64,000 bases of DNA from Massalongia carnosa. Its lineage: Eukaryota. The stretch lies in NCBI GenBank assembly GCA_965645245.1, contig OZ287068.1:2356001-2420000 (forward strand). Reading direction: 5' to 3'. Both the position numbers and the translations under genes were made by a program. Positions 2,744-41,006 of this stretch are shown piece after piece. The stretch's first letter is position 1, and each line of letters starts with the position of its first letter. The notes beneath the pieces are model-generated. The model ran no database searches. It was not told where the DNA came from and saw only the letters and a list, made by a program, of their open reading frames with translations.

Positions 2744-3527
2744 GTGAGGTCTTGGGTTTTTGTGCAGTTCTTGCCAAAGGGCAGAGGTGGAGTTAGGTTG
2801 GAGCTGATTGGATGGCGAGTTTTGCATCTGCCAGTCAAAAGCCATGTCTGTACTGAACATGTATTACAGAAAAAATGTGTGGATTTGGGATTTCTGAACA
2901 GCTCGCTACGGACGATGTAGGTAGTAGCGTGTCAAAACAAAATAAGATTAAAAAAATATTTCATACCTACAGCTCGAAACGCATTTAATTTCCCCCCCTT
3001 CCTCGCTGTGATAATATTTCGTTCTTTATTTTCCTTTGCTCTAGGATTTTGCCTGGTCTGGTGTTGGACATTTGCTTAGTATGAAATGTCATTAGCGAGT
3101 AAATCCCTAGGTTACTTGAATACTTTATCGTTCCATCGTTTTTTCCCATTCTTCTTTCCGGCCATAATTTCATTTCCTTGTTCTCCGCCATACATCATAT
3201 TGTTAGTATTACTATTATTGTTATTAGGGACCCGCTAACTATCCGTACACCCCCATGTCCCATCGTCCATTCCAGTCACCCACTCCTCCATGATCGGGCT
3301 TTGAGCAAGCAAGGCAGGCAGTCTGATAAAGGGGAGGGAGAGGTTGGAGAAAGGGAGGGTTCATCGCTTACTTTTTCTCTTCATTCGGTTGCTTTTAAGG
3401 GCTGATGCGCGTTGCATGACATCGCGCCGAAAGGCAACCTGCTCCCGGATAAACAGCCAGGTTCACGTCCTTGAAGTATTAATTTAAACCCATTCAATCG
3501 TTCCAATATCCGCTCCAACAGATCCAG

Positions 3528-12500: not shown

Positions 12501-15500
12501 TGCTTGACGTATATCCAGCTGATTCAAGATTACTTTAATTCTGTGTTAATCGCAGTATCACTTCTCTACTGATCGACTGCTATGCTTACCTTTGAGTGTG
12601 CAAAATAAACTGCAAAACGTTTTTGTCTTTCATAGGGATAATTTCGCACACTAAGGGAAACTGTGTAGAGTTAACAACATACTCTCAACTTGAAACTTAA
12701 AAAACTCACGTCTATAGCGCCAATATCCTTTCTCACAGTCCAAATATGATTTTCTCCGGAGACTTTCGGTTTTTGTAGTATGAAAAGGGTATCAAAAAGC
12801 CGCTCACGCTCAGTATTGTCCGCACCTCGAATACGACGTAAAGGGGTAAACTGAAACGGTGACGTGTCAAAGCTCTGCTGCTGTACATGCTTGATAAATT
12901 TGATGTTCGATATATTGGAGGTCAGCTGCAATCTAACGGGGATCGTGTTGAAGCAAGGAGCTACCAATCGTTCGATGCCATCCATGGGTAGAGAGCGACC
13001 ACTGACTACGTTGCCAAAGCAAACATCCTCAGTATTTAAATACAGTGAGAGTAATCGTGCCCAGCTTGCTTGGAAAAGTCCAAGCTGAGAAAGTGAGTGT
13101 TTCCTGCAGTAAGTTTCGATAAAGTTAAGGCTGGTCGAGGAGGACCGGCTTATCATGAAATTCCCTGGGCCTCTATCTCCAGGATCAACTGGCTTAAGAG
13201 ATAGATAGGGGAATAGCTTTGGTTTGTATGCAGCCAACTGCTTGTTCCAGAACAAATCCGCTTCTTCTAGATTAAGAGATAGTGCCAGCTGAAGAAAACC
13301 TTCAAATAGAATAGCCGATGGTGTGACATGAGAATCATAAGCCTTCTTGACTTCACCAAGCAGTAATTCTATAGCCTCTCCATCATACAGTGCATGATGC
13401 ATTGAAAAGAGAATAAATTTCTTGTTTGTGGACCGAAAAGCTGTGAAAGAGTATGGTGGGTCGAGTTCATCCAGAGTTTTCGTCACTAGATCAATTCGTC
13501 GGTCTAACGCAGAATCGAGATCCTCGTTCCCAACATTGACCGTAGCCCAATTCAGTGGGTGAGCAGAAAGTATTACTTGGGCATAGGAATATCGACCATT
13601 CCTCGTGGTTGTAAATGAGGTTCTCAGTATATCATGCTTAAGTACCATACTCTCCCATGCTTTTTGGAGCCTATCAAGATCACCATGGATTTCGAAAACA
13701 GTATGATTGTAGTAAGAATTGACCGATCTAGAGCCGACGGAGGCCAACATAGCTTCTTGTAGCGGAGTGCAAGGTAAAATCTTGTTGACATGTCTTCCTG
13801 TCTCGTCGAAGCGTTTCCGGATACTTTCCGTCTCCGAATGATCAAAAACGTCTCGAACAGCAATCCTAGACCTCTTGTCAGCAACAGACCTCTCAAATTC
13901 CTCAGTAAGCTTCTTGGCCAGTGTAAGAACTGTTGAGTGCCTCAAGATAATGGAAGCTTCTGCCATCTGGAAACCTTGCTCTCTCAGAGATTTCGCAAAC
14001 GATACCGCGGAGATAGAGTCTAAACCCAGACTGAAGAAAGACGTGCGGCGCCCAACGTCCTCCTGCGCGCATTTTATCGTAACGCAAAGAATGTTTGAAA
14101 TGTTCCGTTCAAGTTGAGACCATTCCTGGTCATTCAAATTATGTTCGAATGGTTGAGAAAATTGTTCAACGGAATCTCGGTCGAGTTTTGACAAAGCCTT
14201 GATAAGGCGACGTCGGTCTATTTTTCCTTGCGCGGTCATGGGAATATATGAAATAGGGACCAACAGGGATGGGATCATGTACGAAGGCAAAGAAGCTTCC
14301 AAATCCGAGAAGAGAGTCATAAATGTGGGGTTTGACACGTCTTGGATATCGAGAATTCGCCAATTCAAAGTTGAGCGACCTTTCGGGACCCAAAATGTCA
14401 AAAGTCTTTGGACAGTCGGTTTGATCTGATCGATAAAGGTGCATACATCAAGCACTCCTGGAGATTTGAGTAAGACGTTGTTAATCTCACCAAGCTCTAC
14501 GCGCTGTCCTCGGATTTTCACTTGGTCATCTTGCCTGCCAAAATATTCCAGAGCCCCATTCCACAGTATTCTGCCAAAGTCACCACTACGGTACAATCGA
14601 CCAAACCGTGGATGCTCGATAATTTTTTGAGCATTTAACACGGGCATGTTGAGGTATCCATGGAAAACTTGATCACCGCCAAAGCAGAACTCGCCGATTG
14701 CACCCCGTGGGGTTAGTGTAAGACTCTTAGCGCCTTGCATTACAAAAGCTGAAGTGTTAGGAAGTGGTGGGCCTATCTTGTTGATGGCATCGGACGAAGT
14801 GACCAGCGGCTGAAGGGTACAAATATTTGTCGTCTCACTTGGACCGTAGCCTGGAAAATTTGTGTTACTTAGTTCAGCTTTAATGTCCATTTGGACTCAC
14901 CTTGATATAAGCCTTTCCCTGACCAGTTATTAAAGACTTTGTCAGTCAAAGCCTCTCCAGCGGTGACTAAAAATTTTACTGCTGGAACGTTCCTCGGTTC
15001 AACAAGAGCAGCCACGGTAGGAGTTAAGCTCAGGTGGGTTATATTCATAGCCCGAATGGCGTTCTCCAAATCTCGAAATAGAACATCTTGAGTGGCCGAA
15101 CATAGGCACATGCCTGTGAACCATGCAAAAAATATCTCAAATACCGAAACTAGAAGTTTTTAGCGCCCTCATTATCGCAAAATCTGGTATGATGCCACTT
15201 ACCATCAAAGGCTTGTGAGCATGATTGCAGCAATCTGGAGCCTTCGGGTACAGGGTAAATATCCGCGAGCACGCGCAGGTTGCTAACTAAATTTCCTTGA
15301 GTAATTAGAACCCCTTTAGCAGCTCCTGTAGTACCAGAGGTAAACACCGCATACGCTGGATCTGAGGGCCGAATTACGCAGGTTGGATTAGAGGCTGGCA
15401 TACAATTCAGGTCAACTCGGTCCATGAATAGCAGCTTCACCGACGGGGGGAATGTAAGAAGAGTTTGCTTTTCCGATCTCGGTTCAGTCAAGCTTAAGCG

Positions 15501-18500
15501 GGTTCTGTAAAACGGTTCATTAATATCCAATTGCAAGTCCTCATTCGACTGCCCAGCTAAACTCGAATGTGTGATGCAAAATTTTACTTTGCTGTCAGTT
15601 AAAATAGCACGAAGCCTATTAACTGGCGTTTCCGGTGTCATTGCCAAATAACCTGCCCCGACTTTCACAACTCCCAAAATACTTATGTACAGATCCACGG
15701 ATTTTCCCAGGCATATACATACTAACTCGTTTGACGATATGTCTCGTTGCAAGAGATAATGCGCAAGCTGATTTGCTCTTACGTTGAGGCTGTGATAGGA
15801 AACTCTCTCTGCTTCAACAACAGGCCCATTTAGTTCTCGCACAAATTCGATTGCAATCCGGGTTGGCTCATTATGAGCGAGAAGCTCAACCGTTTGAGAT
15901 AACCCCGCAGGATTCTGATGGTGTTCTGGGCTGGGATTCTCGAAAGAAAGAAGCTCATCATCAAGATGGTGGCTAAGCTCGGTCAGGAGCGTGAAAGGCT
16001 GAGACGTAAGAGCTATGATTAAATGATCCATTTGGCGCAGGAAAATAGTCATCTGACTCTCGGGGAAAACTGACCGCTGATAATTGGCTTTGATTTGGAA
16101 GGCTCCCTCGTTCGGGTTCACTTCCAAGGTCAGATTACATTCAAGATAGTCTTTGGCATCGACCTGGGTGACAAGCTCAGGACTCCGCTCCTGCAATGTT
16201 TGTTGCCATATCAGCATTGCATCGAAGAGCGGGAGCCCGGGCGCAATCCCGCAAATCTTCTTTATCTCTTGTAATGGAAGCTCGTGGTGCTCTAGCAGTT
16301 CTCTGTTAAGTCGATGAACGGCTTGGATCAGATCTTGAGCAGTCCTAGAGTGAGCTACATCCAGCCTGAGGGGCAAAGTGGCAAAACAAGGACCGATGAT
16401 ATCCTCAATGCCGGGAACTGGAAGGGTCCGGCCTGATGAGACGGTGCCCATGATGACATCAGAGCTGCCAATATACATACCCAGCAGCCAAGCAAAAGCA
16501 GCCTGGAATAGGGCTTGAGGACTGACGCCAAGATTTCTTGAGGTCGATACTAGATCAGCCAGGCACGTGGTCAACGCAAAAGTAGATACACCTAAGCCGG
16601 GCTCTATATCTGTTTTCCCATGCAAGTTTGGTACTCTGCAGCTGGATGCATCTTGGAGATGGGTTTGCCAGTAGTCTTTGGACAGCGCCAACTTTGCCAG
16701 TGTTGAGGGGTGATTATAGAAACTCACGAGTTCTCTAAACTGGCACCGGGGGCGTAAAGGCTGCTTTCGGAGAATTAAGTCCAAGTCGCTGACTACATGC
16801 TCCCACGACCATCCATCGTAAAGAGCGTGATGGAGTTGGACCAAAATTCTGGATATTCCTCCGAAACTCCGTAAATGTACCCGAAGAGGCTTCAAGAACT
16901 CATCGGCTGTCTGGATGCGAAAGCTCCTTTTGGAAGATGACGATTGGCTTATCTGAAATTCAGATAAATTACTCCAAATCACTTGAACGAAGGGATGTAG
17001 CTGGTTCCCTGATTGAGCAAAGCCAGTACGCAATATCTCGTTCCGATCTGCTAAGTGGATAAAGGCTAATTGTACTTGGTCGAGTTTGACACTATCCAGG
17101 CATTCCAGCTCAACCCAATTGCAGTAAGCTTGGTGGTTTGCTTTGGTTTCGGCCAGCATTGCAATCTGTAGCGGCGTGCATGGAATAACATCATTAATGC
17201 TGCTGTATTCCGATTCTGAAAGTCTACTTTGTAATTCGTTGAGAACATCTTCCCGAACATTAACCCAGTCACCCGTTGGTAGCCTCGAATTGCTGGAGCG
17301 AGTTAAGCTTTCCAAAGGACGCGAAGCTTCTACAATTCGTTTGATAGTGTTCGCCTTCAGGATATCAACAACCCCAGTATTAATGTTTACTGACCGTAGT
17401 CTCGAGGCTAAGCGAATCGCAGACAGCGAATCAAGCCCCGCTGCAGCCAAATTCACTGAGAGATCGAGGCTGAGACCCAGAACATCCTGAATGGCTTTAC
17501 CAATCTTCGCTTCCATTTCAGTTTGTTCATTCCGCGGGATCGAGCTTGAAGTTTTTATTTCCTTTTCATATTCTGCCCTGAGCTTTAACGCGTCAACTTT
17601 ACCAGATGGTAATCGTGGCACGTCTTTCAGTAGAACCACATCACCTGGCACCACAAAACCTGGTAGCCAACGGCGACAAGTTTCCCAAACGTCAGCAGAA
17701 GTAACCTTAGGGTTCCCGGCAACGCAAAATAGCACCACAACCGCACCAACAACTACAGCAGTGGCACTCCTTATGCCTTCCATTTGATATGCGACCTGCT
17801 CTATTTCTCCAAGTTCAATTCTCTGTCCTCGCAATTTCACTTGGCCGGAATTCATTCTTCCCAAGCACTCGAAGACCCCGCCCGGAAGAAGTCGTGCCTT
17901 GTCGCCGGTTCTATAGACGCGTCCATATAGGCGAGTCTCCACAAAAGCAGAAGCTGTCTGCTCAGGACGATTGATATATCCGTCTGCTACCTGCAGTCCA
18001 GCAATCGCAAGTTCACCAATGTGTCCCAGTGGAAGTACCTCTATATCTGGAGATACTTCCCCCGAAGCCTGTGAAGCAACAATCAGACAAGAGACAGTAC
18101 CGAGAGGCACACCAATAATTCCGACTTTGAATTGTGACGAAAATGTAGTGGCTAGCGTGCAATGTATAGTCGCTTCCGTGGGGCCATACATGCCATGCAA
18201 GATGCCTTTCTTCGAGGGGGTATCGCCGAATTCATCAAGAACCGGACGAGTGAGCATCTCGCCAATAGTCAAGAGAACCTTCAGCTTCGGTACTCGAGTT
18301 CGGGTTTGAATCAAAGTTCCTACTACTGTTGGTGTTAGCTCCGCCGCATCGACACTGAGTAAAGTAATCATCGCAGGCAAGTCACGTAGGAGCTCCGTTC
18401 GGTCGCAGCCAACAAGTGTTTTACCTCGGTATAGAGGAAAGAACATCTCGAACACAAATACATCGAAAGTTGGAGCTGCGAACTGCAGAAAACGATGAAA

Positions 18501-19677
18501 TGTTGGGATGTGTTCATCATGTGCCAGGAGAGCCTGGGTGGCAGATAGATGGGATATTTCAACTCCTTTTGGTTGTCCTGTGGAGCCCGACGTGTACATA
18601 ACATACGCAAGGTTGGCTGGGCTGGGTATGCCGGACCAGATCTCACGCTCATCATAGTCTTCCGAGAATTGGTCTGCCAGGATGATCCGTGGGCAATTTT
18701 CCCAAAAAAATTTCCCTCTCAGGTCAAGGGTCGTGACAATTAATCTGGCAGCCACGTCACCGGCAATGAATCTGAGGCGCTCCGGTGGTGTATCAAGGTG
18801 TAAGGGACAAAAAGCGGCTCCTGCTTTCAGGATTGCAAGTATAACAATATACAGATCCATACATTGGGGGACCAACAACGGGATAATGCTTTGCTTCTGG
18901 TCGTCGACAGGCTTTGAAGTTTGGAGGATACGCCGAATTCGAGCCGCCACTATACTAGAGCGGTTATGAAGTTCAGTATAAGACACGGTCTGCGATTTTC
19001 CGTCTGGATGGCGAAACTCGATAGCACAAGCATCGCTGTCTTCATGTCTATTTATCAAGTGGTGCAGCAAACCAGGTCCGACTAGTCTGCGCGGGGCTTT
19101 GTTTATAATTGAGAGTTCTAAATCAGGCATGCCTTGCCACGAGAATACATGGCCAGGAGAGCCTGTTCTTTGTTGGACTACATAAACGAGTTGCTCGCTT
19201 ATATGTCGCAGTTGTTTGGTAGTCATGGGCAAGGAGCAAACCAAGGATGATTCTAAACCTTTCTCATCATAGCGTAAAACCACATCAAATCCCTTCAGGA
19301 TTGATTCCTGTGAACGTGAGTGTTGGGGCCACCAAACAAACCAGAAAACTTGCCCCTTCAGTAAAGATACCTGTGTATCTTTCTCCTTCCACTGCCGTCA
19401 TATGAATCACTTCTGGTGAAGCCTCACTCAAAACATCGACTGTAACGCTATCTCCATTGATCCTGAACGTTGGTGTGGCCTCTTCAGTATAACACCGAAG
19501 GACAATTGCCCAAGCTATTACAAGAACATCGAGAGAAGCTTGAACAAGAAAATCAATAGAGTTTGGAGAGACATCATCCGTCGCCACGATTGGCCTCAAG
19601 GGAGACAAATCGGGAAACCGGGTGTATCTTACAGGCTCCATCAGAAAATCTTCACTCGCATGGAGGAGATAAGTCAT
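3528..19677 (-). CDS. sidC: Ferrichrome-family (ferricrocin-type) siderophore NRPS, NPS2/SidC-like, about 13 introns
   Basis: Three A domains (YVMYTSGSTGQPKG, YAVFTSGTTGAAKG, YCLYTSGTSGTPK; YGPTE/YGPSE; YRTGD/YRSGD; QVKLRGQR). Six T domains (GLDS). Six C domains (HHALYDG, HHALYDG, LHAIFDA, FHALYDG, SHALYDG, HHALYDG). Order is A-T-C-A-T-C-T-C-A-T-C-T-C-T-C. The last exon ends ...DVGIWFPESLRGVQYMEELLEELRVGLEGI* at 3528. It lies divergent to sidA. Confidence 0.93.
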
Positions 19678-24476: not shown

Positions 24477-25114
24477 GATGATGATTGATTCTTGTACCGA
24501 TCTGACACCGGCCGAAGGCCGGCCCATGCGGGCTATCTACTTATTCTTACAGGGAAACCCTTTTAAAGGGACAAAAACCATGCAGACTGCGCCATTATCC
24601 CAAACGTGTTCCGTTTCTAGACTGCATTCTTCGCTCGATGTTCTGTGAAATCCTTGACAAAATGAGAGTTATCACTCGTATAACAGTTGCGATGCTAGTG
24701 AAAATTGGGTCAGCAAATTTGCTTTTATTATCCATGTGGTTAGTTTTTTCAACATTTTCGACGAGCTCATGATCGTTCGATAGTCGTTGGTGCCTATTTG
24801 TTTTAGCACTTCGTATCTGCCGTCGATTAGCCTGCAATGTAGAATGATGTGTTTGGCTGTCTGCTTCTGCCATCCGCACGAGCAGGCCGGGGTCATAACG
24901 CCCGGTACCCGACGATTGAACAGGAAGTTTGCCAAGCCTATTTTTTCGGTGCGGATTTGCGTGGTTAGCGCGCTTTCCGCTTTCATCAGGTTATTGTGAA
25001 TCTTCAGTCTCGTCCTACTGAGAGATCCCAACTGTGCCTCTGTCGGGCGGGGAATGCGGTTCTGGTACGTCTTCCATTTGGAGTCCCAGCGTTCCTTGAT
25101 GCGTTCTGTGGTGG
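24477..25114 (-). mobile_element. 5'-truncated Tad-like LINE (3' end of ORF2, 3' UTR, (ATC)n tail)
   Basis: ORF remnant QIRTEKIGLANFL..CSCGWQKQTAKHIILHC is a LINE C-terminal zinc knuckle. A 13-bp TSD AAAGTGAACAAAT lies at 24464-24476 and 25115-25127. The tail reads GATGATGATT on the + strand. Confidence 0.9.
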
Positions 25115-25281
25115 AAAGTGAACAAATAAGCATTACTCTCAAAATCTAACTTTGAATTCCCTCTTCTCCCCCTCAAACAAGGGCGAGCTAACGAGCGAGA
25201 GATATAGTTGTCGCGCGGGATTCAAAAAGGGGGAAAAGGCGGCGAAGGTCCGAGGAAGAGATAGGTGTATGTTTGAAATAA

Positions 25282-25457
25282 TGAGATGGTTCTATGTCAC
25301 GTGAGGCCCCTGAGTCAAAGTAAATTAAGAATCACCCTCTGAAAATTCTTTCCTCATCCACTTCTTCTCACTCGGCCTCATCCATCTCACTGACTCGTCG
25401 TCGACCCCACGTTGTCTCGGTGCCCCTACCTCGCTGTCAGTGCTTGCTGCTTTTCCC
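25282..25457 (+). repeat. Split direct repeat A1 (176 bp), identical to A2 at 29566-29741
   Basis: Both run TGAGATGGTTCTATGTCACGTGAGG...GCTGCTTTTCCC; no mismatches seen by eye. Confidence 0.95.
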
Positions 25458-25526
25458 ATCTCACTGACTCGTCGTCGACCTCACGTTGTCCTCGGTGCCC
25501 CTACCTCGCTGTCGGTGCTTTTTCCC
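25382..25526 (+). repeat. Imperfect ~74-bp tandem duplication in the 5' leader of the YR retrotransposon
   Basis: CCATCTCACTGACTCGTCGTCGACC...CCTACCTCGCTGTC starts at both 25382 and 25456. Confidence 0.85.
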
Positions 25527-25527
25527 A

Positions 25528-26541
25528 ATGACGAACACCCGTTCCCAAAGCACCCCGATGGACGACATAGTCCCCGACTCCTAGGAGATTGTCGGATTGA
25601 CGCAGGCCCAGTCCAATCAAATCTTCGCCCTACAAAAGAAGAAAGCCGAGGCAGAAGCGAAGGCGGCCGAGGCTGAGGCCAGAATTGCCGAGTCCAAGGC
25701 ATTGGTCGCCGAGAAGGAGGTGGAAAAAATGCAGCTAGAAATCGACTGCATGCGCCGAGAATCTGACGCCCGAATAGCGGCCGTCATTCCTGCTGGCAAG
25801 CCGAGTCGTGTCGTCGGCGATGACGACGAGGACCTAGGTGAGATCCCTCTCGAAGTAAGAAGTATAGCACCCCGTTTCGCGGGCCTACCACAGGACGAGA
25901 TCATCAAGATCTTTTCAAATAAATTCAAAGCCATCAACCTCTCCCGCCTCCGACACATGCACGGCATGCAATACGAGTCCTACAAGGATCAGGACCGCAT
26001 CGGCATCGAAGACGGCGCCTTGAGGTTGAGAAAGGCATCCGGGACCTACAAAGATTTCGGAAAGACAGTTCATGACGTCTGGACCGAGAGCTTCATCAAC
26101 TACACCTCGATCATGGTCAGTCTTTTCGGGAAATCGAGTCAACAGCTTCACGCCACCATGTCGGCATTCCACGGAAAAATCCTCACGCTGGCCAAGGTGT
26201 ACGAGTGGCAGGAAGCAGTCCTCCCCCTCGCCATCGAAACCCACACTCACATCATCGCGTCTCAGCCATCCGACGCATCCCAATGGAAAATGCCCGACGA
26301 ATTCCAAGCTCGATTCTGCACCCCCCTCACAGTCCTACGCCGTCGCCGCTCACGATCCCCGCCGTCCCGGCGACCGACCCCGAGAGGAGACAGGGCCGAT
26401 AGGGCCGAGAAGGCAGCGGGGGAAATCTGCGACAAGTACAACAGCGGCACCTGCACCTGGCCGTCGTGCTACCGACAGCACAAATGTAAATCGTGCGGCG
26501 CGGCTGGGCATGGCCAGAAGACATGCCCAACGAAGAAATAG
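25528..26541 (+). pseudogene. gag-like ORF1 of the YR retrotransposon with an early nonsense codon
   Basis: ATG at 25528 reads MTNTRSQSTPMDDIVPDS*EIVGLTQAQ, with TAG at 25582. A coiled coil follows, then a C-terminal CCCH+CCHC finger CDKYNSGTCTWPSCYRQHKCKSCGAAGHGQKTC. Confidence 0.8.
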
Positions 26542-26586
26542 GGGGTTGGTGCAGGAGGCAGTAGAATAGCTTCAATAGCTGAATTC

Positions 26587-28241
26587 ATGACGTCCCATCC
26601 CTGCTTACCTGCACCAATCAGACCAAATACAATCCCTTCGTTTCAACTCGTAGACGCATCTCGTCAGCGTTTGAAAGACAGCCCATCTCCCCTCGTACCG
26701 TCCGCATGGGCAACTCTACTTCAAGAGTATCCGGGCCCCCTCCGAGTCCATCTGCCCATGATCCTTCGTTTCGGAGTACAAATCGGATACGAAGGCCCCA
26801 CAGACATCCTTCGGATCGAAAAAAATCTGACATCAGCGAATGAGGACCCGGAAACGATCGAGAATAAGCTCCAAGAGGACCTCAGGAAGGGCCGAGTCAG
26901 ACGAATAGCCGCCCCGAGTCAGCCATTTGTGGCCTCCCCCCTCGGCTTGGTCCCGAAACATGACGGAGGATGGCGACGCATTCATCATCTGTCTCATCCC
27001 AATCAAACATCAGTCAACGACAACATTCCAGAAGAGGCATCCAAATTACAATACGCCAGACTCGACGACATTATTCAATTGATTCTGTCAGCGGGCAAAG
27101 GTGCTGTCATAGTGAAAAGAGACGTCAAAGACGCCTTTCGAAACGTTCCCGTCGCACCTCATCATCAATGGCTTCTGGGTTTCGGATGGAATGACGAATT
27201 CTACACCGAGACATGCCTTTCCTTCGGACTGTCGACGGCCCCGTTCATCTTCAATCTTTTTGCGGAAGGCTTTCATTGGATTTTGGAATCCTTTCTACAA
27301 TGGAGATTACATCACTATCTAGACGACTTCGTTGCAATTTTCCCATCCGAGACATCGTCAGAACGATTGCACCAAGAAACAAAAGCCTACAACATTCTCA
27401 CCGACATTCTTGGCATCCCGAGAAAGGACTCAAAAGACGCCGAGGGAACGACAGCGACAGTCTTCGGACTCGAGGTCGACACCATCAACAGTCTTATTCG
27501 TCTGCCAGCGGACAAGCTGGAAAAAGCGAGAATCATCACTACAAAGGCACTAAACGAGACGACAATCAGCCTCGGCGACATGCAGTCAATAGCGGGCTTC
27601 CTAAGCTTCTGCGCACAGGCAGTCAAATTGGGCCGAGTCTTCTTACGATTATTCTGGAATTTTATAGCCTCATTTCCCTCGGGCAGTCATCGTCGGGTCA
27701 AAAGAAGAATTCCCACATGGGTCAGACAGGATCTCATCTGGTGGAACAAACTTCTAGTGGACTTCAACGGTATTGTCTTCTTCGAGACGTCAACACGAGA
27801 CACGATCAAGACAACGAGCTCGTGAATCAAAAAAACGCATGTAGGGCCCGAGTCCTAGTCCTCAATCAGGAAGGATCACCGAGCATAAACGTCCGAGAAG
27901 TCGAAGCTATCCTTCTAATCCTTCAGAAATGGGCGCCGACATGGCGACATCGACAGATCCTTGTCTTTACCGACAGCAACACAGCATACACAGGATTCAC
28001 GAATCTAACCCTCAAGGGACCGGCCAACGCGCCTCTACGAGAAATACTGTCCATAGCTGCAAAGTGGGACATCGTACTACGTTGTCAATGGATCAGTGGC
28101 ACTTCCAATGGACTAGCAGATGCCCTGTCACGTTTTGATGATGAAAGATTGGCTAACTTTTGCCCTCATTGGCAGAACCCATACAATTCGATGAACCTCC
28201 CTCCACCTACCTATCCTCCACACCAGGGTCAGCCCTGGTAA
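26587..28241 (+). pseudogene. Reverse transcriptase / RNase H ORF2 of the YR retrotransposon, frameshifted near 27810
   Basis: RT motifs SPLGLVPKHDGGWRRIHHLS, KRDVKDAFR, LSFGLSTAPFIF and YLDDF. RNase H motifs SINVREVEAI, VFTDSNT and NGLADALSRF are in another frame, and the first RNase H Asp motif is missing. Confidence 0.85.
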
Positions 28242-29323
28242 AACGTCTCGTCTGGCACGGACACTCGGCGGACACGAGAAAAGGGTACGGGACGGCGATC
28301 GACTCATACGAGGCATTCTGCGCGACGACGGGACGCACGTCGTGGCCTGCAACAACCGAGTCCCTCGAGGAATGGCTAGCCGGTCGACTATACGGGGGCG
28401 GCACACCCAAGCAGGGAAAGATAAAACCAGAGACGGCAGCGAGCTACCTCGCCGGCCTCAGATCATACCATGTAGACCGAGGATACGGCCTCACCCCATT
28501 CGAGGGGCCGAGACTTCAATTGATGCTGAAAGGGGGAAAAAGGATCTTTTCTCAGACAAAAAGAAGACGCCTACCCATTTCAAAAGAATTACTGACAAAA
28601 ATCACCAGTATTCCCGCTCATTCGGCCGAAGACCTCAACATCGACGCGACATTCAAAGTTGCATGGGCAGGGTTCCTCAGACTCGGGGAAATCACCTACA
28701 CTGTCGCTGATCGTAAGAAGACATCTTTTCAGAGATTGAAACCTACACGAGGTGACATCTCATTCGCCGAGAACGATCAATACGCGACATTACGTCTCAA
28801 AAGAAGCAAAACAGACACAAATCACTCAGGAGTTCAGATAGTGCTGGCAGCGACCAATGAGAGCACTTGCCCCGTGACAGCACTACGGCGTCTTTTCAGA
28901 AATGATCCTCAGCCATCTACATCCCCGCTTTTTCGTCTCGGCACCGCATTCACCAGAGCCTCCGTCATAGCATCCCTGAAAAAGAGACTGATAGCCGTCG
29001 GCATCAACGACTCGGCATACTCGGGACACAGCTTCAGAAAAGGAGCAGCACAACACGCCGCCGACCACGGGATGCTGGATGAGAGTATTCAGAGACTCGG
29101 AAGATGGTCATCAAACGCGTTTCAGCTATACTTTCAGACGTCCCAGGCCTCACTATTCAATTTGAACCTCAGTTTTCAAAAAGGCATCCCTCTAGCAGTC
29201 CCACGTGCTGTCGTCGCCGAGACGAATCCTACAAACTCCTACCCCTACTCAATTGGGCATTCCATTGGGCGTACAGGTCAACCAGGGCATCGATCCGGAG
29301 CGCCGCCGGGCACCTCCATCTAG
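28160..29323 (+). CDS. Tyrosine recombinase (ORF3) of the YR retrotransposon
   Basis: Catalytic motifs AWAGFLRLGE (R), LKRSKTD (K), GHSFRKGAA (HxxR) and LGRWSSNAFQLY (W...Y). It overlaps the end of ORF2 in a different frame, as in DIRS/Ngaro. Start is uncertain. Confidence 0.9.
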   Translation: MPSLAEPIQFDEPPSTYLSSTPGSALVKRLVWHGHSADTRKGYGTAIDSYEAFCATTGRTSWPATTESLEEWLAGRLYGGGTPKQGKIKPETAASYLAGLRSYHVDRGYGLTPFEGPRLQLMLKGGKRIFSQTKRRRLPISKELLTKITSIPAHSAEDLNIDATFKVAWAGFLRLGEITYTVADRKKTSFQRLKPTRGDISFAENDQYATLRLKRSKTDTNHSGVQIVLAATNESTCPVTALRRLFRNDPQPSTSPLFRLGTAFTRASVIASLKKRLIAVGINDSAYSGHSFRKGAAQHAADHGMLDESIQRLGRWSSNAFQLYFQTSQASLFNLNLSFQKGIPLAVPRAVVAETNPTNSYPYSIGHSIGRTGQPGHRSGAPPGTSI

Positions 29324-29565
29324 ATCATCGCCGTCGGGCACTGCCGTCGGGCATCATCTATCGGATCGTTGAGCGTCAGCAGACGCCTCGGGCCTAGAAG
29401 ATGAGGTTCTCACCTCAGCACCGACCCCGAGTCACGTGCCTAGGCCTGCCCGGGCTGACCTGTGTCGTTCCCATGCCCAATCAAATTCAAGCATTCAAAT
29501 CAATTCATCCAATTAAAAGCCCCCCCAGCGCAAGCGAAGGTAACGGCACCGATAAGGGTCATAGA
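29266..29565 (+). repeat. Split direct repeat B1 (300 bp), identical to B2 at 29796-30095
   Basis: Both run TGGGCGTACAGGTCAACC...GATAAGGGTCATAGA; no mismatches seen. Confidence 0.95.
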
Positions 29566-30117
29566 TGAGATGGTTCTATGTCACGTGAGGCCCCTGAGTC
29601 AAAGTAAATTAAGAATCACCCTCTGAAAATTCTTTCCTCATCCACTTCTTCTCACTCGGCCTCATCCATCTCACTGACTCGTCGTCGACCCCACGTTGTC
29701 TCGGTGCCCCTACCTCGCTGTCAGTGCTTGCTGCTTTTCCCCACCCTCGGCCACCCGAGATTCATAGCTAGTTAGAAGCCACCTTAAGTGAGCGATGGGC
29801 GTACAGGTCAACCAGGGCATCGATCCGGAGCGCCGCCGGGCACCTCCATCTAGATCATCGCCGTCGGGCACTGCCGTCGGGCATCATCTATCGGATCGTT
29901 GAGCGTCAGCAGACGCCTCGGGCCTAGAAGATGAGGTTCTCACCTCAGCACCGACCCCGAGTCACGTGCCTAGGCCTGCCCGGGCTGACCTGTGTCGTTC
30001 CCATGCCCAATCAAATTCAAGCATTCAAATCAATTCATCCAATTAAAAGCCCCCCCAGCGCAAGCGAAGGTAACGGCACCGATAAGGGTCATAGAGATAT
30101 CAATATAGGTAGTTAAA

Positions 30118-32766
30118 GAGTACGGATACGTGGACACCCCTTTGGTTACCTGGACACCCCCTGAGGTTACCTGGACACCCCCCAGTGATACAGGGACACC
30201 CCCTTCCTAGAATAGGTAAGAATCAAGGGTTCAGCCCCCTCACTTACCCACTTCGGGGTAAGCTCCCGGGCGCATATCGGGGAAATTTTTTCCTTCACCT
30301 TTTGAAAGTGGTCGGGAATTTCTGAAACGAAGTCGATTGGCACTGGCTTTGCAAATCAGACTCTGATTCTAGAAACTAAGCCTCATTTGGTCTAATTAAT
30401 GATGATAACCTCCTCATCTCCGCTTGCTGTCGCTGTCCCCCCCCCCCTGTCGCCGTCCCCGCCTCCGAGTCATTTGTAGCCAGCCTGCCAATCCCCTTGT
30501 TATAACCCCTCCTCTAGCCCTACCTCCCCGTCCCCGTCCCCATCCCGATCCCCGTCCCCGTCTGCCTCGTCCACGACCAGGTGCCGGGTCCGCTCGATGA
30601 ACGGCTGATTGATCTGCATCCGGGTCCACCCGCTCGAAAAGGGAAGGATCACGATTAGTAGATGCCTCGAATGCTTGCTGTCTTCTATTCAAATTCTCCG
30701 CACCTGCAGGTCTGCCCCTTGGTCTAGCAACTTCGGGTGCCTGAACCCGAAGATAAGGATTATCAATAGCCACACGGGCTGTCCTATCAAACCTCCAATG
30801 AGGATGAATATCTTCCAATAGCAACTTTCCCCCCCCATCCCCATACAATCGTTCCTGAATCTTATGACTGCACGGAAGACCCATGGTTAAACTGAACGTT
30901 CCAGTACAGGCCGGAATAGCTGTTGGTTGACCAACCAAACGTTCGTATTGAGGCATTATCTTTCTCAAAGCATAGGAAGTGACGTATGGACTGATTTCCT
31001 GAAAGATAGGTTTGCGAATATCCATAGGTAGTCGCACCTTCGCTTCATCAAGACGAATCAGATGATTGTGAAGTTCATTGATCAATAGAAGATTGATTCC
31101 GTCCACCACCGTCTTAAGATCTCTAGATGATGACCCTAGCTGTCGCTTAAGTACTGCATGCCCACCTTCACCTCGAGAGGTAGTGGTGGTTTCGAAATGA
31201 GTAATCATACTGGTATAGCACTTGACAAAACGATGTCGGAAGGGTATGTAGATGTCGTTTAGATATTCCACACATTGATCCTGACCCTGATACTGAATCC
31301 TGAATCGCTCCCATGACTCCAAAAACTCTGGTTCTGACGAGGCATAAACGACCGTTTTCCAGTCAGCGAAGAAGGAGTCCCACGCCTCTTTGGTATCGAA
31401 GCTCTTCTTGCAATTGGTCAGGACGTTATTATTGATGTGCCATAAGCAAAGCAGATGATTGGTTGCGGGGAAAACATCCTCAATTCCAGCTATCAGACTC
31501 TTTTCCATGTCCGTGACTATGACGATCGGGTTAGGAAGCATCATCCCATCATACATACCTCGCAATTGCTGCAACATCCAGGTATAATCAGACGTGGCTT
31601 CCTTGGCCATGAAGCAAAATGCCACATAGAAGTTGGTATGTAGGGCGGTTTGACCACTGATGATCAATAAGGGCATCTTATATCTGTTGGTTTTGTAAGT
31701 GGCGTCCATCACCAACACCTCGTAATTCGTCTTCAATAGTCGTTGAGAACAGCCCTTAATAAAGAATAAATGAGTTATTCTATCTAGATCATCCTTTTGC
31801 ATCTGATACGTCCAATCTCCTTGATCCAGCTCTCGGATTAATGCCTGAACCGGAGTCAATGGGCCGAGTGTCTCGCGACGAAGCTGTGCTTTGACGTTGT
31901 AGATATCCCGAGGTTTGAATAAGGGATTGATGATGTAGGGATTTTCTGGATCGTCAAAATTGATTCCCGTCGTCGGATCAGCAACACGAAGACTAGATAA
32001 AATCTTGAAAGGGGCTGTTTGCACGATCAGAGCTCGGGAAATCTCACTTTTAACCTCTTTCGTCATCGCCAATTTCCTCAACGCTGGATGAGCACCAGCG
32101 AGGGTAGAAGCATGATTATGAGTCGATTTGACCACCTCCAAAAACCAGATACCACTGTCGTTTTCTCGTGTGGCCACACAAGAGAAAGGGCATTCAATTC
32201 GTCGGCTACCCGTATGTCGCCGATCCTGACCTCTTGGTCCGTCGGTTTTTCTTCCTCGATCACATATCAGCCATGCCTTTCTTGTTACCTTAAGTTTCGA
32301 CTTCTTGGTTCGACCCAAAACGACTGCGTATCCTTGAAAACTTTGTCCATCCTCGGGGGGTGCAAGTCCGCCAGGGGGTAGAGGGCCAGGTGGTCGGGGT
32401 GGAGTAGCTGGTTCATCTTCGAGGGGTGCAAGTCCGTCAGGAGGTGGGGCAGGAGGTGGGGCAGGAGGTGGGGGGTCAGGAGGTGGGGCAGGAGGTGGGG
32501 GGTCAGGAGGTGGTGCAGACATGATAAAGTGTCAAAATGTTGGTGATGATGCTGTTTACGAAGTGCCAAAATGTTGGTGTTTACGGTTGAAAAAAAAATT
32601 CCCGAGGTGCACCCTCGGGAGCTTACCCCGAAGTGGGTAAGTGAGGGGGCTGAACCCTTGATTCTTACCTATTCTAGGAAGGGGGTGTCCGTGTATCACT
32701 TGGGGGTGTCCAGGTAACCTCAGGGGGTGTCCAGGTAGCCAAAGGGGTGTCCACGTATCCGTACTC
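30118..32766 (-). mobile_element. Mutator-like (MULE) DNA transposon
   Basis: 151-bp TIRs (30118-30268 and 32616-32766, ~3 mismatches) begin GAGTACGGATACGTGGACACCCC and each contains four GGACACCCC subrepeats. An 8-bp TSD TAGTTAAA lies at 30110-30117 and 32767-32774. Confidence 0.93.
30414..32522 (-). CDS. MULE transposase
   Basis: FAR1-like CDRG..CPF..HNH; MULE DDE motifs MDATYKTNRY, VTDMEKSL, CLWHI and RGEGGHAVLK; SWIM finger CTGTFSLTMGLPCSH; AT-hook RPRGRP; Pro-repeat N-terminus. Confidence 0.9.
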   Translation of the reverse strand: MSAPPPDPPPPAPPPDPPPPAPPPAPPPDGLAPLEDEPATPPRPPGPLPPGGLAPPEDGQSFQGYAVVLGRTKKSKLKVTRKAWLICDRGRKTDGPRGQDRRHTGSRRIECPFSCVATRENDSGIWFLEVVKSTHNHASTLAGAHPALRKLAMTKEVKSEISRALIVQTAPFKILSSLRVADPTTGINFDDPENPYIINPLFKPRDIYNVKAQLRRETLGPLTPVQALIRELDQGDWTYQMQKDDLDRITHLFFIKGCSQRLLKTNYEVLVMDATYKTNRYKMPLLIISGQTALHTNFYVAFCFMAKEATSDYTWMLQQLRGMYDGMMLPNPIVIVTDMEKSLIAGIEDVFPATNHLLCLWHINNNVLTNCKKSFDTKEAWDSFFADWKTVVYASSEPEFLESWERFRIQYQGQDQCVEYLNDIYIPFRHRFVKCYTSMITHFETTTTSRGEGGHAVLKRQLGSSSRDLKTVVDGINLLLINELHNHLIRLDEAKVRLPMDIRKPIFQEISPYVTSYALRKIMPQYERLVGQPTAIPACTGTFSLTMGLPCSHKIQERLYGDGGGKLLLEDIHPHWRFDRTARVAIDNPYLRVQAPEVARPRGRPAGAENLNRRQQAFEASTNRDPSLFERVDPDADQSAVHRADPAPGRGRGRRGRGSGWGRGRGGRARGGVITRGLAGWLQMTRRRGRRQGGGDSDSKRR

Positions 32767-37469: not shown

Positions 37470-39371
37470 TTCGTGCCCCACACTTTCGCTCGGTCGACTC
37501 GCTTAGTGCTAGCCAGCCATACAGCCAGGACCAGCCATACAGCCAAAATCTTCAAATTTCTACCCACCACCTTTGAAAAATTCATTATCCACCACCATCA
37601 TGCCTGAATCTTATACTATAATTGAAAATCGTATTGCAAAGGCCATTGACGCCTTAAACTCACGCAAAAACGCCAAACTCAGTGCAATTGCGCGGGAATT
37701 TAATGTACCTAGAGGAAGACTTCGTTCTCGGGTCAAAGGGGTGTCATCTAAAACGAAAGTACGAGGACTGCATAATATACGTCTAAAACCCGATCAGGAG
37801 TTGGCCCTACGTCTATATCTTTTGAAACTGGATTCTTTGGACATTCCGGCTCGTCTGCATATAGTGGAAGTGGCTGCATACTCCATTCTTCGTCAAACGG
37901 CTTCCGATTCGACGCCTCCTCCTCCTCTCGGCTCGCATTGGATCAAAAGATGGCTAAAACGTCAGTCAGATCTTTACAAGGTTAAACGTAAGCCTCTAGC
38001 TGCTGAGCGCAAAAATGCGCATGATTTGGAGTTATTGATGGGGCATTTTGAAAAATATCAAGTAGTGAACAAGTATGGAATAAATCCGAAGGATCAGTGG
38101 AATTTTGATGAAACTGGGTTTCGTATTGGTATGGCACGAAGTGATTGGATAATCACAGCAGATTCTTCTCGACAATCATACAGTTCCGATCCATCAAATC
38201 GAGAATCGCTGACAGCGGTGGAGTGTATCAACGGGGCTGGTCAGGACATTCCCCCTTTTTTAATTGTGTCTGGCATCAACATCCTCGCTCCCTGGGTCAA
38301 AAACGATCTGAGCAATGATGTAGTCATTTCTACAGCTGAATCGGGCTGTACAAATGACTGGTTGAGTTTGCAATGGATCAAGCATTTCGACAAACACACT
38401 GAAAAAATAAGAGAGGGGGCTTGGAGACTTTTGATAATGGACGGTTATGGATCTCATCATACTCGAGAATTTCTAGAATATTGTGAAACGAAAAACATCA
38501 TTCCATTCGGATTACCATCTCATACCACAAATCTCTTACAACCATTGGATGTGTGTGTTTTTCAACCTCTGAAACACTGGCATTCCGAGGCCGTCAATAA
38601 AGCAATTCAGAATGGAGATCAAACCTTTTCCAAAGTCGAATTTCTGAATGCATTTAGCAAGTTTCGATCGCTGGCTTTTAAACCTTCCACCATACAGTCT
38701 GCTTGGAGAAAAACAGGCTTGATTCCGTTCAATCCAGGCATTGTTCTCGACAAAGTTCGAGAACTTCTTCCTCCCCCTCCTCGTGAATCAACTCCGTCTC
38801 ATACAGCCCCCTATCTGTACAAGAAACCCCTCGAACCGTGCGACAGTTGGCCACAGTAGCCACAGAAATCATGACGCATTCAGCTTGCTCGGATGACCTC
38901 GTACAAATTGTTAGCAAATTTGTAAAGGGAGCTGTTGCCGAGGTTCGAAAAGGCGATCTTCTGGAACAACGCTGGGAACAACAAATCAAGGCCCAAACTG
39001 CTCGGAAAGCTCGTAAACGAGAGGCCAATAAGATTCTTCATCACGGAGGCGTACTTACTGTTGGTGAGGCCCGTTCAATGGTTCGTGGTAGGGAGGAGCG
39101 GGAGGAGATAAGGGAGAAAGAGCGAAACGTCGCATGGGAAAAGCGTTATTGTACGGCTCTTACCAAAGTGGTTAGGCAGTCAAAAGCGCATAGAAAGATG
39201 CTTATGACTAGAAGCATTAATAGTCACAAAAGATGGATGATGATCATGAAGGAATTGCTGAAAAAAACCCCGATGTATGTAGAATAGTTGATTTTTGGCT
39301 GTATGGCTGGTCCTGGCTGTATGGCTGGCTAGCACTAAGCGAGTCGACCGAGCGAAAGTGTGGGGCACGAA
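37470..39371 (+). mobile_element. Fot1/pogo-type (Tc1/mariner superfamily) DNA transposon
   Basis: 79-bp perfect TIRs (37470-37548 and 39293-39371) with an internal CAGCCATACAGCCA duplication. TA TSD at 37468-37469 and 39372-39373. Confidence 0.93.
37600..39287 (+). pseudogene. Fot1/pogo transposase with a frameshift near 38805
   Basis: HTH-psq start AIAREFNVPRGRL and DDD motifs NFDETG, MDGYGSH and LQPLD. The C-terminal part (ETPRTVRQL..GGVLTVGEAR) is in another frame. Confidence 0.85.
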
Positions 39372-39758
39372 TACTCTCTGTATTCAGAATACCGTACGGA
39401 GTACTAAATATCTATTACCTCTTAAGTATTACACAAAAGATACATAGATATGCACATAACAGGTATGCGGTTACTCTGTGCAGAGTACAAAGTATTATCC
39501 ACTAAATAATACGGAATAACTACCGTAACGTGACTAGCCAGCGGATTTAAGACGGGGATATATCATCACAGCGTTAATCAATAGGCATTTACAGAGAAGG
39601 TGGTTGGACGCAATCTTGCTAAACAATCCCGATCAGGGCTAACTGTACGTAATGGATGACGATGACCTTCTCCCTCTCACCCCTTATATGCAAGCTCCTA
39701 GAGACTTGCCGGGGAACTTTGAAAGGAAGATAGAAAATAGAAACCCTAAACCCTCGCT

Positions 39759-41006
39759 ATGTCGCCCGCGCCCAAAATCGCCATTGTGGGTGGTGGACCC
39801 GCAGGCTGCACGCTCGCCCGGCTCCTCCTCAATGCGTCGATCCCCGTCACGATCTTCGAAAAGGAAGTGTCCCCCGATGTGCGCTCTCAAGGCGGCACGC
39901 TCGACTTGCACAATGCCACGGGTCTCAAAGCGCTGAGGCAAGCCGGGCTCTACAAGGAGTTCCTGAAATACGCCCGGTTCGACGGGGAAGCCTTCGCGGT
40001 GGCGGACAAGCATCTGAAAAAATACATCAGTATGGGGGGCACGACGAAAGAGACGAGTCGCGGGAGGCCCGAGATCGATCGCGAGCAGCTGCGCCGTGTG
40101 CTACTGGAAGCGCTGCCAGAGGGGGTCATCAAGTGGGGATCCCGGCTGAGCAGGGTAGATGACGACTTGGCCATGCACTTTGACCACGGGGTGGAGAAGG
40201 GCTACGACCTGATCGTCGGCGCCGACGGAGCGTGGAGCAAAGTGCGCCCGCTAGTCTCGTCCGCGCAACCGGTCTATTGCGGCCTCAGCGGGCTCGAGCT
40301 GACAATCGACGAGGTGGAGAAGCACCACCCGGACCTGCACCGGCTCGTGAACCGCGGCTCGCTGTTCGCATACTCGGACGGCAAGTTCATCGGCGCGCAG
40401 CAGAAAGGCGACCGGAGCCTCATTGTGCACGTATGGAGCCTTCGCGATGAGGGCTGGCCCAAGACGCACGGCCCCGCCGCCCGGAGCGCCGCCGACGTGA
40501 AACGGTCCATCCTCGAGGACTACGACGGATGGGCGGCCCCCTTGCTCTATCTTACGCAGGCCGCCAACGAGAAGGACATGGTGGCGCGCGGGCTGTACGA
40601 GTTGCCGGTGGGTCATCGCTGGGAGCACCGGCCCGGCGTCACGCTGATCGGCGACGCGGCCCATCTCGCCACCCCGTTTGCCGGCGAGGGCGTCAATATC
40701 GCCATGGAGGATGCATTGAAGCTTGCGCACGTGATAATCGCCGCCGCCGCCGCTGTTGAGGGTTTTCCTTCGGGCTCGTCGATCGACGCGCGCCTGCGGG
40801 CTTTCGAGGAAGATATGTTTCGCCGCGGGGAGGCGGTGCAAGCGCGTTCCCGGGGGAACATGGTGGACATGTTCTTTACGGCGGGGGCGCCGGCGACGGT
40901 GATCGATCGGTTCGTGAGACGGGCCTTGCCGCCATCGATCGCCTACTGGATGCCGTTGTGGGCGGTCAGGGTGTTGCTGTGGGCTGTGCAGCGGTTTATG
41001 GGCTGA
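39759..41006 (+). CDS. FAD-dependent monooxygenase (TetX / salicylate-hydroxylase-like), intronless
   Basis: Motifs IAIVGGGPAG, QGGTLDLH, RPEIDR, LIVGADGAWSKVR and TLIGDAAHLATPFAGEGVN; intact 415-aa ORF. Confidence 0.9.
   Translation: MSPAPKIAIVGGGPAGCTLARLLLNASIPVTIFEKEVSPDVRSQGGTLDLHNATGLKALRQAGLYKEFLKYARFDGEAFAVADKHLKKYISMGGTTKETSRGRPEIDREQLRRVLLEALPEGVIKWGSRLSRVDDDLAMHFDHGVEKGYDLIVGADGAWSKVRPLVSSAQPVYCGLSGLELTIDEVEKHHPDLHRLVNRGSLFAYSDGKFIGAQQKGDRSLIVHVWSLRDEGWPKTHGPAARSAADVKRSILEDYDGWAAPLLYLTQAANEKDMVARGLYELPVGHRWEHRPGVTLIGDAAHLATPFAGEGVNIAMEDALKLAHVIIAAAAAVEGFPSGSSIDARLRAFEEDMFRRGEAVQARSRGNMVDMFFTAGAPATVIDRFVRRALPPSIAYWMPLWAVRVLLWAVQRFMG

Follow-up and report, generated by a model that had tools for sequence, protein, structure and literature searches.

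A conserved folded domain in repeat B of a Ngaro-like retrotransposon from Massalongia carnosa is probably a signal for the copying of the element

DIRS, PAT and Ngaro elements make up the least understood order of retrotransposons. Ngaro-like elements carry split direct repeats in the order A1-B1-A2-B2, and in the accessible text of the papers which set out this layout the repeats are described as boundaries alone (PMC4157794, PMC3783388, PMC13465315). For DIRS-1, the available excerpts of PMC7192593 record the authors' statement that the start of complementary DNA (cDNA) synthesis is not known and that no primer has been identified, and a hairpin at the 3' end of the RNA is proposed there as the primer of reverse transcription. 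In this study, we analyzed a stretch of 64,000 nucleotides (nt) from Massalongia carnosa (assembly GCA_965645245.1, contig OZ287068.1, positions 2,356,001 to 2,420,000 of the forward strand), hereafter the window, to which all coordinates refer. Positions 25281-30095 are a 4.8-kb Ngaro-like tyrosine-recombinase retrotransposon of the DIRS order with split direct repeats arranged as A1 ... B1-A2-spacer-B2. Like the Ngaro-like elements in the literature consulted, it possesses gag, reverse transcriptase and tyrosine-recombinase open reading frames (ORFs), has no methyltransferase match, and places its internal repeats downstream of the recombinase. Positions 29250-29484 are a conserved folded domain of this element, the fold taking up the 5' two-thirds of repeat B just past the recombinase ORF, and it is probably a signal that the element needs for its own copying.

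A sequence-only reading of the window had placed a nested structure with three arms at 29266-29473. The eight helix strands were found at exactly the claimed positions: ACAGGTCA (29273-80) with TGACCTGT (29456-63), GGGCA (29285-89) with TGCCC (29447-51), CGATCCG (29291-97) with CGGATCG (29362-68), and GGCCTAG (29391-97) with CTAGGCC (29440-46). The GCGTC/GACGC hairpin within 29373-86, the TAGAT/ATCTA, TGAGG/CCTCA and GCAC/GTGC pairs and the tandem GCCGTCGGGCA are likewise present, and energy minimization of 29266-29473 recovers the nested arrangement with three arms. The outer stem, here named P1, does lie at the repeat boundary as proposed but is longer than claimed, and its 5' strand (TGGGCGTACAGGTCA, 29266-80) starts with the very first nucleotide of B. 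Outside these coordinates lies another helix, P0, which had been missed. The GNRA-type hairpin assigned to the end of the repeat exists (GCGCAAGC, 29528-35), but it has a stem of just 2 base pairs (bp) and is unsupported.

The fold is exceptionally stable. As RNA, the + strand of 29266-29473 folds at -98.2 kcal/mol, versus -79.5 +/- 4.3 kcal/mol for 200 dinucleotide shuffles (z -4.36), and the - strand at -105.7 kcal/mol (z -4.72); none of the 200 shuffles was as good on either strand, so that the sequence is clearly better than shuffled controls, as the sequence-only reading had required of a real structure. With P0 included, 29250-29484 reaches -109.7 kcal/mol and z -5.21 as RNA on the + strand, and z -5.26 (+ strand) and -5.96 (- strand) as DNA, again with 0 of 200 shuffles as good in each case. 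A local-fold scan returned 29252-29482 with z -5.24 at -109.7 kcal/mol. When the + strand of the element was scanned in 51 sliding segments of 200 nt, 29266-29465 was the sole segment with z < -4 (-91.8 kcal/mol, z -4.0) and had by far the lowest energy, and one other segment fell below -3 (26466-26665).

Relatives were collected by scanning metagenome contigs with the recombinase alignment, which yielded 78 loci with protein identities of at most 54%. The layout A1..B1-A2..B2 is found in at least nine of these metagenome relatives. Aligned on a conserved motif, they display a common anatomy of repeat B: a C/T-rich tract, a TGG-containing segment, the B boundary and a stem-enclosed domain, followed by a box ending in CCAAT, an A-rich stretch, and then ATAGA-N(4-10)-TCTAT over the B|A border. 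Domain interiors measure about 60 nt (group I of the relatives), about 95 nt (groups II-IV) and 190 nt (window). Between groups they resist alignment, and yet each is self-complementary, ranging from a single hairpin to three arms. The same closing pattern was found in the more distant lineages L032, L034, L033/L069, L060/L061, and L075. An alignment-free test with RNALfold and support-vector-machine z-scores took in 33 loci and, in each, the stretch between 4.2 kb upstream and 1.2 kb downstream of where the recombinase match ends. The top local structure fell within -60 to +450 nt of that end in 14 of the 33 loci, versus 3.8 expected (Poisson-binomial P = 5.9e-6). In L046 and L047 the top local structure is the second B copy, and L014, one of the 14 positive loci, is a tandem array.

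A search of Rfam with permissive filters on both strands of 24500-30800 gave no match at E <= 1, and no transfer RNA (tRNA) or tRNA-like cloverleaf was detected by ARAGORN in 25000-30300. The absence of Rfam matches indicates that the element contains no known ribozyme family or retroelement RNA. This result bears on the proposal that the domain is a self-cleaving ribozyme processing the element RNA. Other retroelement classes carry hammerhead or hepatitis delta virus-like ribozymes, and a multi-branch fold within a retroelement would suit such a role, but the Rfam search stands against it, as does the interior, which is the expected place of a catalytic core and is precisely the unconserved part. 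We therefore regard a ribozyme as scarcely credible, and the self-processing entertained in the sequence-only reading is unsupported. Its other suggestion, an undescribed structured RNA, provisionally fits the open-access literature that was searched.

The domain is closed by P0, a 9-bp helix in the window, whose 5' strand lies outside repeat B and whose 3' strand is the conserved box. The box is kept as ..CCACCAAT / CCCAAT in 18 loci, and takes the form ...GTACCCACCAAT in three groups, CCTCCCAAT in the fourth and CCCATGCCCAAT in the window. In 17 of the 18 loci, no other segment of the upstream 270 nt pairs with the box as well as the TGG-containing segment at the B1 border. Duplex folds anchored on CCAAT gave P0 helices of 9-12 bp with differing sequences in six lineages, for example GGTACGGGC/GCCCGTACC, GGCTGCGG/CCGCAGCC and GGCGCAGG/CCTGCGCC, or ATGGG/CCCAT versus TTGGG/CCCAA. 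Several positions carry different Watson-Crick pairs between lineages, and a TGG-containing 5' strand is combined with a CCA-containing 3' strand in five of the six. The pairs were tabulated from duplex folds because a MAFFT alignment of 12 domains across groups misplaced the 5' end of group III. Compensatory changes, for which the sequence-only reading had also asked, are present between lineages in P0 and few within close copies. Together with a stem-enclosed domain at the same place and with unrelated interiors, this covarying closing helix supports the functional cis element that had been proposed from the letters of the window, of which priming of reverse transcription, template switching and packaging are candidate roles.

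The covariation also bears on the view that the box is a CCAAT promoter element acting at the DNA level, with the palindromes tolerated or incidental, having arisen for instance through replication or being targeted by host silencing. In its favor, the window and groups III and IV have CCAATCA as the box sequence, TATA-like A/T words occur 10-40 nt and repeat A about 85-95 nt downstream of it, the B repeats of several relatives fold no better than shuffles, and covariation within groups is weak. A promoter would not explain why the partner strand covaries with the variable part of the box in six lineages, why interiors are self-complementary in lineages without a common interior sequence, or why local structures are enriched at this position (P = 5.9e-6). 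Moreover, no B copy stands before A1, so that the full-length RNA of an integrated copy cannot come from a promoter in B, and we consider this view quite improbable. The TGG strand was also considered as a tRNA primer-binding site and rejected, since it varies between lineages and covaries with the box; judged by eye, with no comparison against host tRNAs, the window's TGG strand is missing the features of a tRNA 3' end.

The two copies of repeat B differ in their surroundings. In all nine elements with both B copies available, the P0 5' strand precedes B1 but not B2, and the duplex energies are -16 to -23 kcal/mol at B1 versus -5 to -12.5 kcal/mol at B2. As the P0 partner stands at B1 alone, an RNA or cDNA spanning the element has the same repeat closed at B1 and open at B2. 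The best reading, we infer, is that the domain is a selected replication signal which acts at a single-strand stage, and that P0 tells the internal from the terminal B. Action at a single-strand stage is suggested by the interior, which is unconserved yet self-complementary, a property that is useless in duplex DNA. The signal would presumably act in RNA, and the replication step served may be cDNA initiation, 3'-end choice or second-strand priming.

A possible mechanism is as follows. The domain, composed of P1 from the first base of B, a lineage-specific interior (three arms here) and the CCAAT-ending box just 3' of P1, would act while the element is single-stranded, as genomic RNA or cDNA. 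At B1 the box would be sequestered by P0, and at B2, where the partner is missing, it would be free. Reverse transcriptase could then engage the open B2 near the 3' end of the RNA and begin first-strand cDNA; alternatively, the open B2 might serve the formation of the RNA 3' end. P0 would lock the internal B1 and prevent the same event 530 nt too early, and B1-A2 would then template the restoration of the element ends, as the internal complementary region of DIRS-1 does. This account, in which the open B2 sets up first-strand synthesis or 3'-end formation, P0 locks B1 and B1-A2 rebuilds the ends, is tentative, and we hold it to be plausible rather than probable, as we do the reading of the domain with this mechanism as a whole. 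It gains indirect support from the open priming step in the DIRS order and from the 3' hairpin proposed for DIRS-1, as far as the text available for that element goes.

P0 at B1 alone, in nine of nine elements, would also be expected from signal masking in gene expression, where P0 hides the box and the neighboring 3'-end-processing signals in B1, sparing the transcript internal cleavage and polyadenylation, and the free B2 is used, without a direct role in reverse transcription. A retroelement that repeats its terminal signals has to keep one of them silent, and the A-rich stretch after the box has AATAAA-like words in several relatives. That stretch itself lies outside the helices, though, and masking would need neither P1 nor the elaborate interior, which both copies possess; we judge masking unlikely. 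Another proposal takes P0 and the domain as a built-in primer:primer-binding-site module, a TGG... strand with a ...CCA strand, which would start first-strand cDNA free of tRNA. We find it rather doubtful. If true, closed B1 and open B2 would set the sites of synthesis start and strand transfer, and the module would be the long-missing priming mechanism of tyrosine-recombinase retrotransposons.

Several observations weigh against a selected replication signal. In no more than 12 of 18 loci is the P0 duplex stronger than every control segment, and the window's own P0 is not among these (-22.6 versus -24.5 for the best control). A strict ungapped TTGG/CCAA test displays weak enrichment (18/54 versus 39/317 upstream windows and 173/1080 shuffles), because most P0 helices are bulged. 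Within close relatives, compensatory changes were rare in the RNAalifold analysis of four groups (2/23, 2/41, 0/41, and 0/40 pairs), and most of the broken pairs are A-C, which matches neutral transitions in decaying copies. The near-identical copies, found on fragmentary contigs of four runs over 29100-30150, have no variant in the domain. Whole-B folds have z above -1.1 in 6 of 14 relatives (L026 -0.5, L029 +0.3, L036 +0.6, L051 +0.5, L006 -0.7, and L008 -1.0). The 33 loci of the positional test are non-independent and represent roughly ten lineages, and none of the 78 related loci has a poly(A)-tailed contig. Finally, a strand preference is absent: of 18 domains, the + strand gives the better fold in 8 and the - strand in another 8, the remaining 2 being equal, and G-U counts are mixed. 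With DNA parameters the z-scores are equally extreme on both strands, so that action in minus-strand cDNA or as a cruciform is possible.

This last point leads to the alternative that the same selected structure acts in minus-strand cDNA, as an origin or primer of the second strand or as a folded accessory site of the recombinase. Conserved ends with a variable middle are reminiscent of folded single-strand sites for tyrosine recombinases. The - strand folds at least as well as the + strand (DNA z -5.96 versus -5.26; RNA -105.7 versus -98.2 kcal/mol), and the domain lies exactly at the left boundary of repeat B, where a minus-strand origin would occupy the position held in long terminal repeat (LTR) elements by the polypurine tract just upstream of U3. 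DIRS-1 is amplified via linear single-stranded cDNA according to the available text of PMC7192593. On the other side, the termini, and hence the crossover, are at the B|A border about 85 nt downstream of the domain, the strand counts given above reveal no minus-strand bias across lineages, and the + strand tract upstream of B1 is pyrimidine-rich and not polypurine. We consider action in minus-strand cDNA unlikely. Two related candidates were rejected on their own account: a polypurine tract, as both the window and groups II-IV have C/T-rich + strand sequence ahead of B1, and an attC-like recombination crossover within the fold, as the termini are at 29565/29566 and 30095.

One relative, L008, has a direct B-A junction at 2825-3368, where the second B copy (110 nt) is fused directly to A near the 41st base of A. 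The fusion point lies 33 nt past the box and at an internal position of A, and 61 nt including the border inverted repeat are omitted. With its terminal redundancy of 1234 nt, the contig joins up into a closed unit of 4515 nt, for which a tandem or circular form, copying from an end-truncated RNA, or an assembly cycle could each account. Such a junction is expected if the RNA ends lie inside B2 and A1, and thus it is a weak hint for the replication signal. Whichever step is served, P0, P1 and the box are concrete mutable targets for priming, strand transfer and end rebuilding, and the domain is a structural landmark for annotating the B repeat in fungal Ngaro-like elements.

Table 1. Coordinates of the folded domain, the retrotransposon and neighboring genes in the window.
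Feature	Position	Strand	Basis or remark
P0 5' strand, ATTGGGCAT	29252-29260	+	6 nt upstream of the B1 boundary; pairs with 29473-29481 in minimum-energy folds
P0 3' strand, ATGCCCAAT	29473-29481	+	Conserved box ending in CCAAT; minimum-energy folds
P1 5' strand, TGGGCGTACAGGTCA	29266-29280	+	Pairs with 29456-29473, minimum-energy fold
P1 3' strand, TGACCTGTGTCGTTCCCA	29456-29473	+	Minimum-energy fold
Arm 1, CGATCCG/CGGATCG around TAGAT/ATCTA and tandem GCCGTCGGGCA (29330, 29343)	29291-29368	+	
Arm 2, GCGTC/GACGC hairpin	29371-29389	+	
Arm 3, GGCCTAG/CTAGGCC around two small hairpins (TGAGG/CCTCA, GCAC/GTGC)	29391-29446	+	
A-rich, weakly structured 3' part of B	29482-29559	+	Same layout in relatives
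Inverted repeat CATAGA-N9-TCTATG over the B|A border, probable recombinase core site	29560-29580	+	ATAGA..TCTAT in relatives; termini map here
Repeat A1, left end	25281-25457	+	100% identical to 29565-29741
gag-like ORF with CX2CX4HX4C zinc knuckle (CKSCGAAGHGQKTC in translation)	25585-26541	+	Translation; stop UAG 26539-41
Reverse transcriptase ORF, gag frame	26542-27825	+	Pfam RVT_1, E 1.3e-12
Overlapping ORF in another frame, at the expected position of RNase H	27195-28241	+	Candidate, by position
Tyrosine recombinase ORF, last 58 nt inside B1	28157-29323	+	339 homologues
Repeat B1	29266-29565	+	100% identical to 29796-30095
Repeat A2	29565-29741	+	100% identical to A1
Spacer, 54 nt, beginning with the conserved C-rich motif	29742-29795	+	
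Repeat B2, right end	29796-30095	+	Domain copy 29796-30003 with P1, without P0 partner; copy z -4.16
Multi-module nonribosomal peptide synthetase (condensation, AMP-binding, PP-binding domains)	3709-19397	-	
MULE transposase	30414-32531	-	
Tc5/pogo DDE_1 transposase	37513-38859	+	
FAD (flavin adenine dinucleotide)-dependent monooxygenase	39750-41006	+	

The features of the element are collected in Table 1. Both ends were located by contigs from another sequencing run: unrelated sequence stands directly before the A start at 29566 in one such contig and directly behind the right end at 30095 (...CATAGA) in one, and the left end reads TGAGATGG.... Neither the gag-like ORF nor the ORF at 27195-28241 has a Pfam match, and the recombinase ORF has none at E <= 1e-3, Phage_integrase included. 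The recombinase alignment retains R198, H291-x-x-R294, W317 and Y325 (R..HxxR..W..Y); proteins of 58-91% identity were matched, and some of the homologues carry the Joint Genome Institute (JGI) name 'integrase'. No methyltransferase family was matched in the Pfam scan of the four element ORFs, which groups the element with Ngaro and not with PAT or DIRS, and its size of 4.8 kb leaves no space for an additional ORF. The element family is multi-copy, as a cluster of 99%-identical recombinases has 54 member sequences on megabase contigs.

The reverse transcriptase, middle and recombinase ORFs each use a frame of their own and overlap extensively with the next (26542-27825, 27195-28241, and 28157-29323); either frameshifting or overlapping ORFs are in use, or a young-looking copy is already broken. 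The gag-like ORF ends with its UAG at 26539-41 and the reverse transcriptase follows in the same frame, with a long hairpin that starts 5 nt past the stop (26530-26652, z -4.2). This hairpin, a candidate signal for stop-codon readthrough, has a stem of GGTTGGTGCAGG.. with ..CCTGCACCAATC, the ends of which resemble the P0 motif; no consistent counterpart of a TTGG/CCAA motif was found at the gag-pol hairpin of relatives. A1 is directly followed by a tandem copy of its own last 65 nt (25456-25520, 95% identity), and the same arrangement occurs in a contig from sequencing run X8. A C-rich motif (CCCACCC-like, 29742-29760) is found directly after A2 in all ten elements examined, the window and L006, L025, L026, L029, L036, L046, L050, L052, and L053; it is missing after A1, where an A/T-rich leader stands instead. 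A 48-nt repeat (90% identity) containing a GGCCGAAGGCC hairpin occurs at 24486-24533 and 47759-47806, in direct orientation and 23 kb apart, its copies flanking the retrotransposon and the MULE and Tc5-like transposases. The peptide synthetase, transposases and monooxygenase around the element look like a transposon-rich secondary-metabolite region, and this gene content points to a filamentous fungus.

The border between B and A forms a subject of its own. The ATAGA..TCTAT sequence is retained at the same place in the relatives L008, L024, L025, L036, and L052, and the element ends fall at the left arm of the border inverted repeat (B end ...CATAGA, A start TGAGATGG). The insertion flanks read ...GAAATA | element | GATATC..., and the rejoined target would contain ATAGAT. 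Judged from these sequences, the inverted repeat looks like a recombinase core site with microhomology to the target. A second exceptional fold, at 29533-29720 (-64.8 kcal/mol, z -5.0, equaled by none of 200 shuffles), reaches from the end of B1 over the border into A2, most of which it covers; since its 5' part is B sequence, it can form only at a B|A junction and not at A1. In L043 (4044-4522), the B copy that follows the recombinase has ...AATAGAT as its last bases, and unrelated sequence stands behind it in place of A2-spacer-B2; this is either an element form with a single B or a further insertion at the border site.

The element adds a member to a known kind, and the folded B domain with its copy-specific helix is provisionally undescribed: no mention of a repeat-B fold, a helix beyond B1 or a conserved box was found in the open-access text searched, a body of text that excludes the founding papers of Goodwin and Poulter. 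A close comparison is DIRS-1, which according to the available text belongs to the same order, restores its termini from an internal copy of the joined ends and has a hairpin near the 3' end of its RNA, but is an inverted-repeat element whose hairpin measures 14 nt (4792-4805) (PMC7192593). In contrast to what that text describes, the domain of the Ngaro-like elements studied here measures 60-230 nt, sits within a direct repeat and carries an outer helix specific to one copy. P0 may be likened to the self-priming of LTR elements of the Tf1/Sushi type, in which a built-in RNA duplex replaces the duplex of tRNA and primer-binding site. Tf1 primes with the 5' end of its own RNA, next to U5, whereas both strands of P0 lie 4 kb downstream, at the B1 border, and the likeness is that of a predicted helix. 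Integron attC and CTX phage attP are folded single-strand sites of tyrosine recombinases, imperfect palindromes with conserved ends and a variable middle. The window element likewise codes for a recombinase of this class and passes through single-stranded DNA intermediates, but its crossover is at the ATAGA..TCTAT border about 85 nt off, and it displays neither attC core motifs nor strand specificity of the attC type. The duplicated terminal signals of retroviruses, such as the poly(A) hairpin of human immunodeficiency virus 1 (HIV-1), offer a further parallel, in that an identical repeat, standing twice in one RNA, is made functionally different by its structural context; in the element described here, as the predicted fold indicates, the difference stems from a partner strand outside the repeat.

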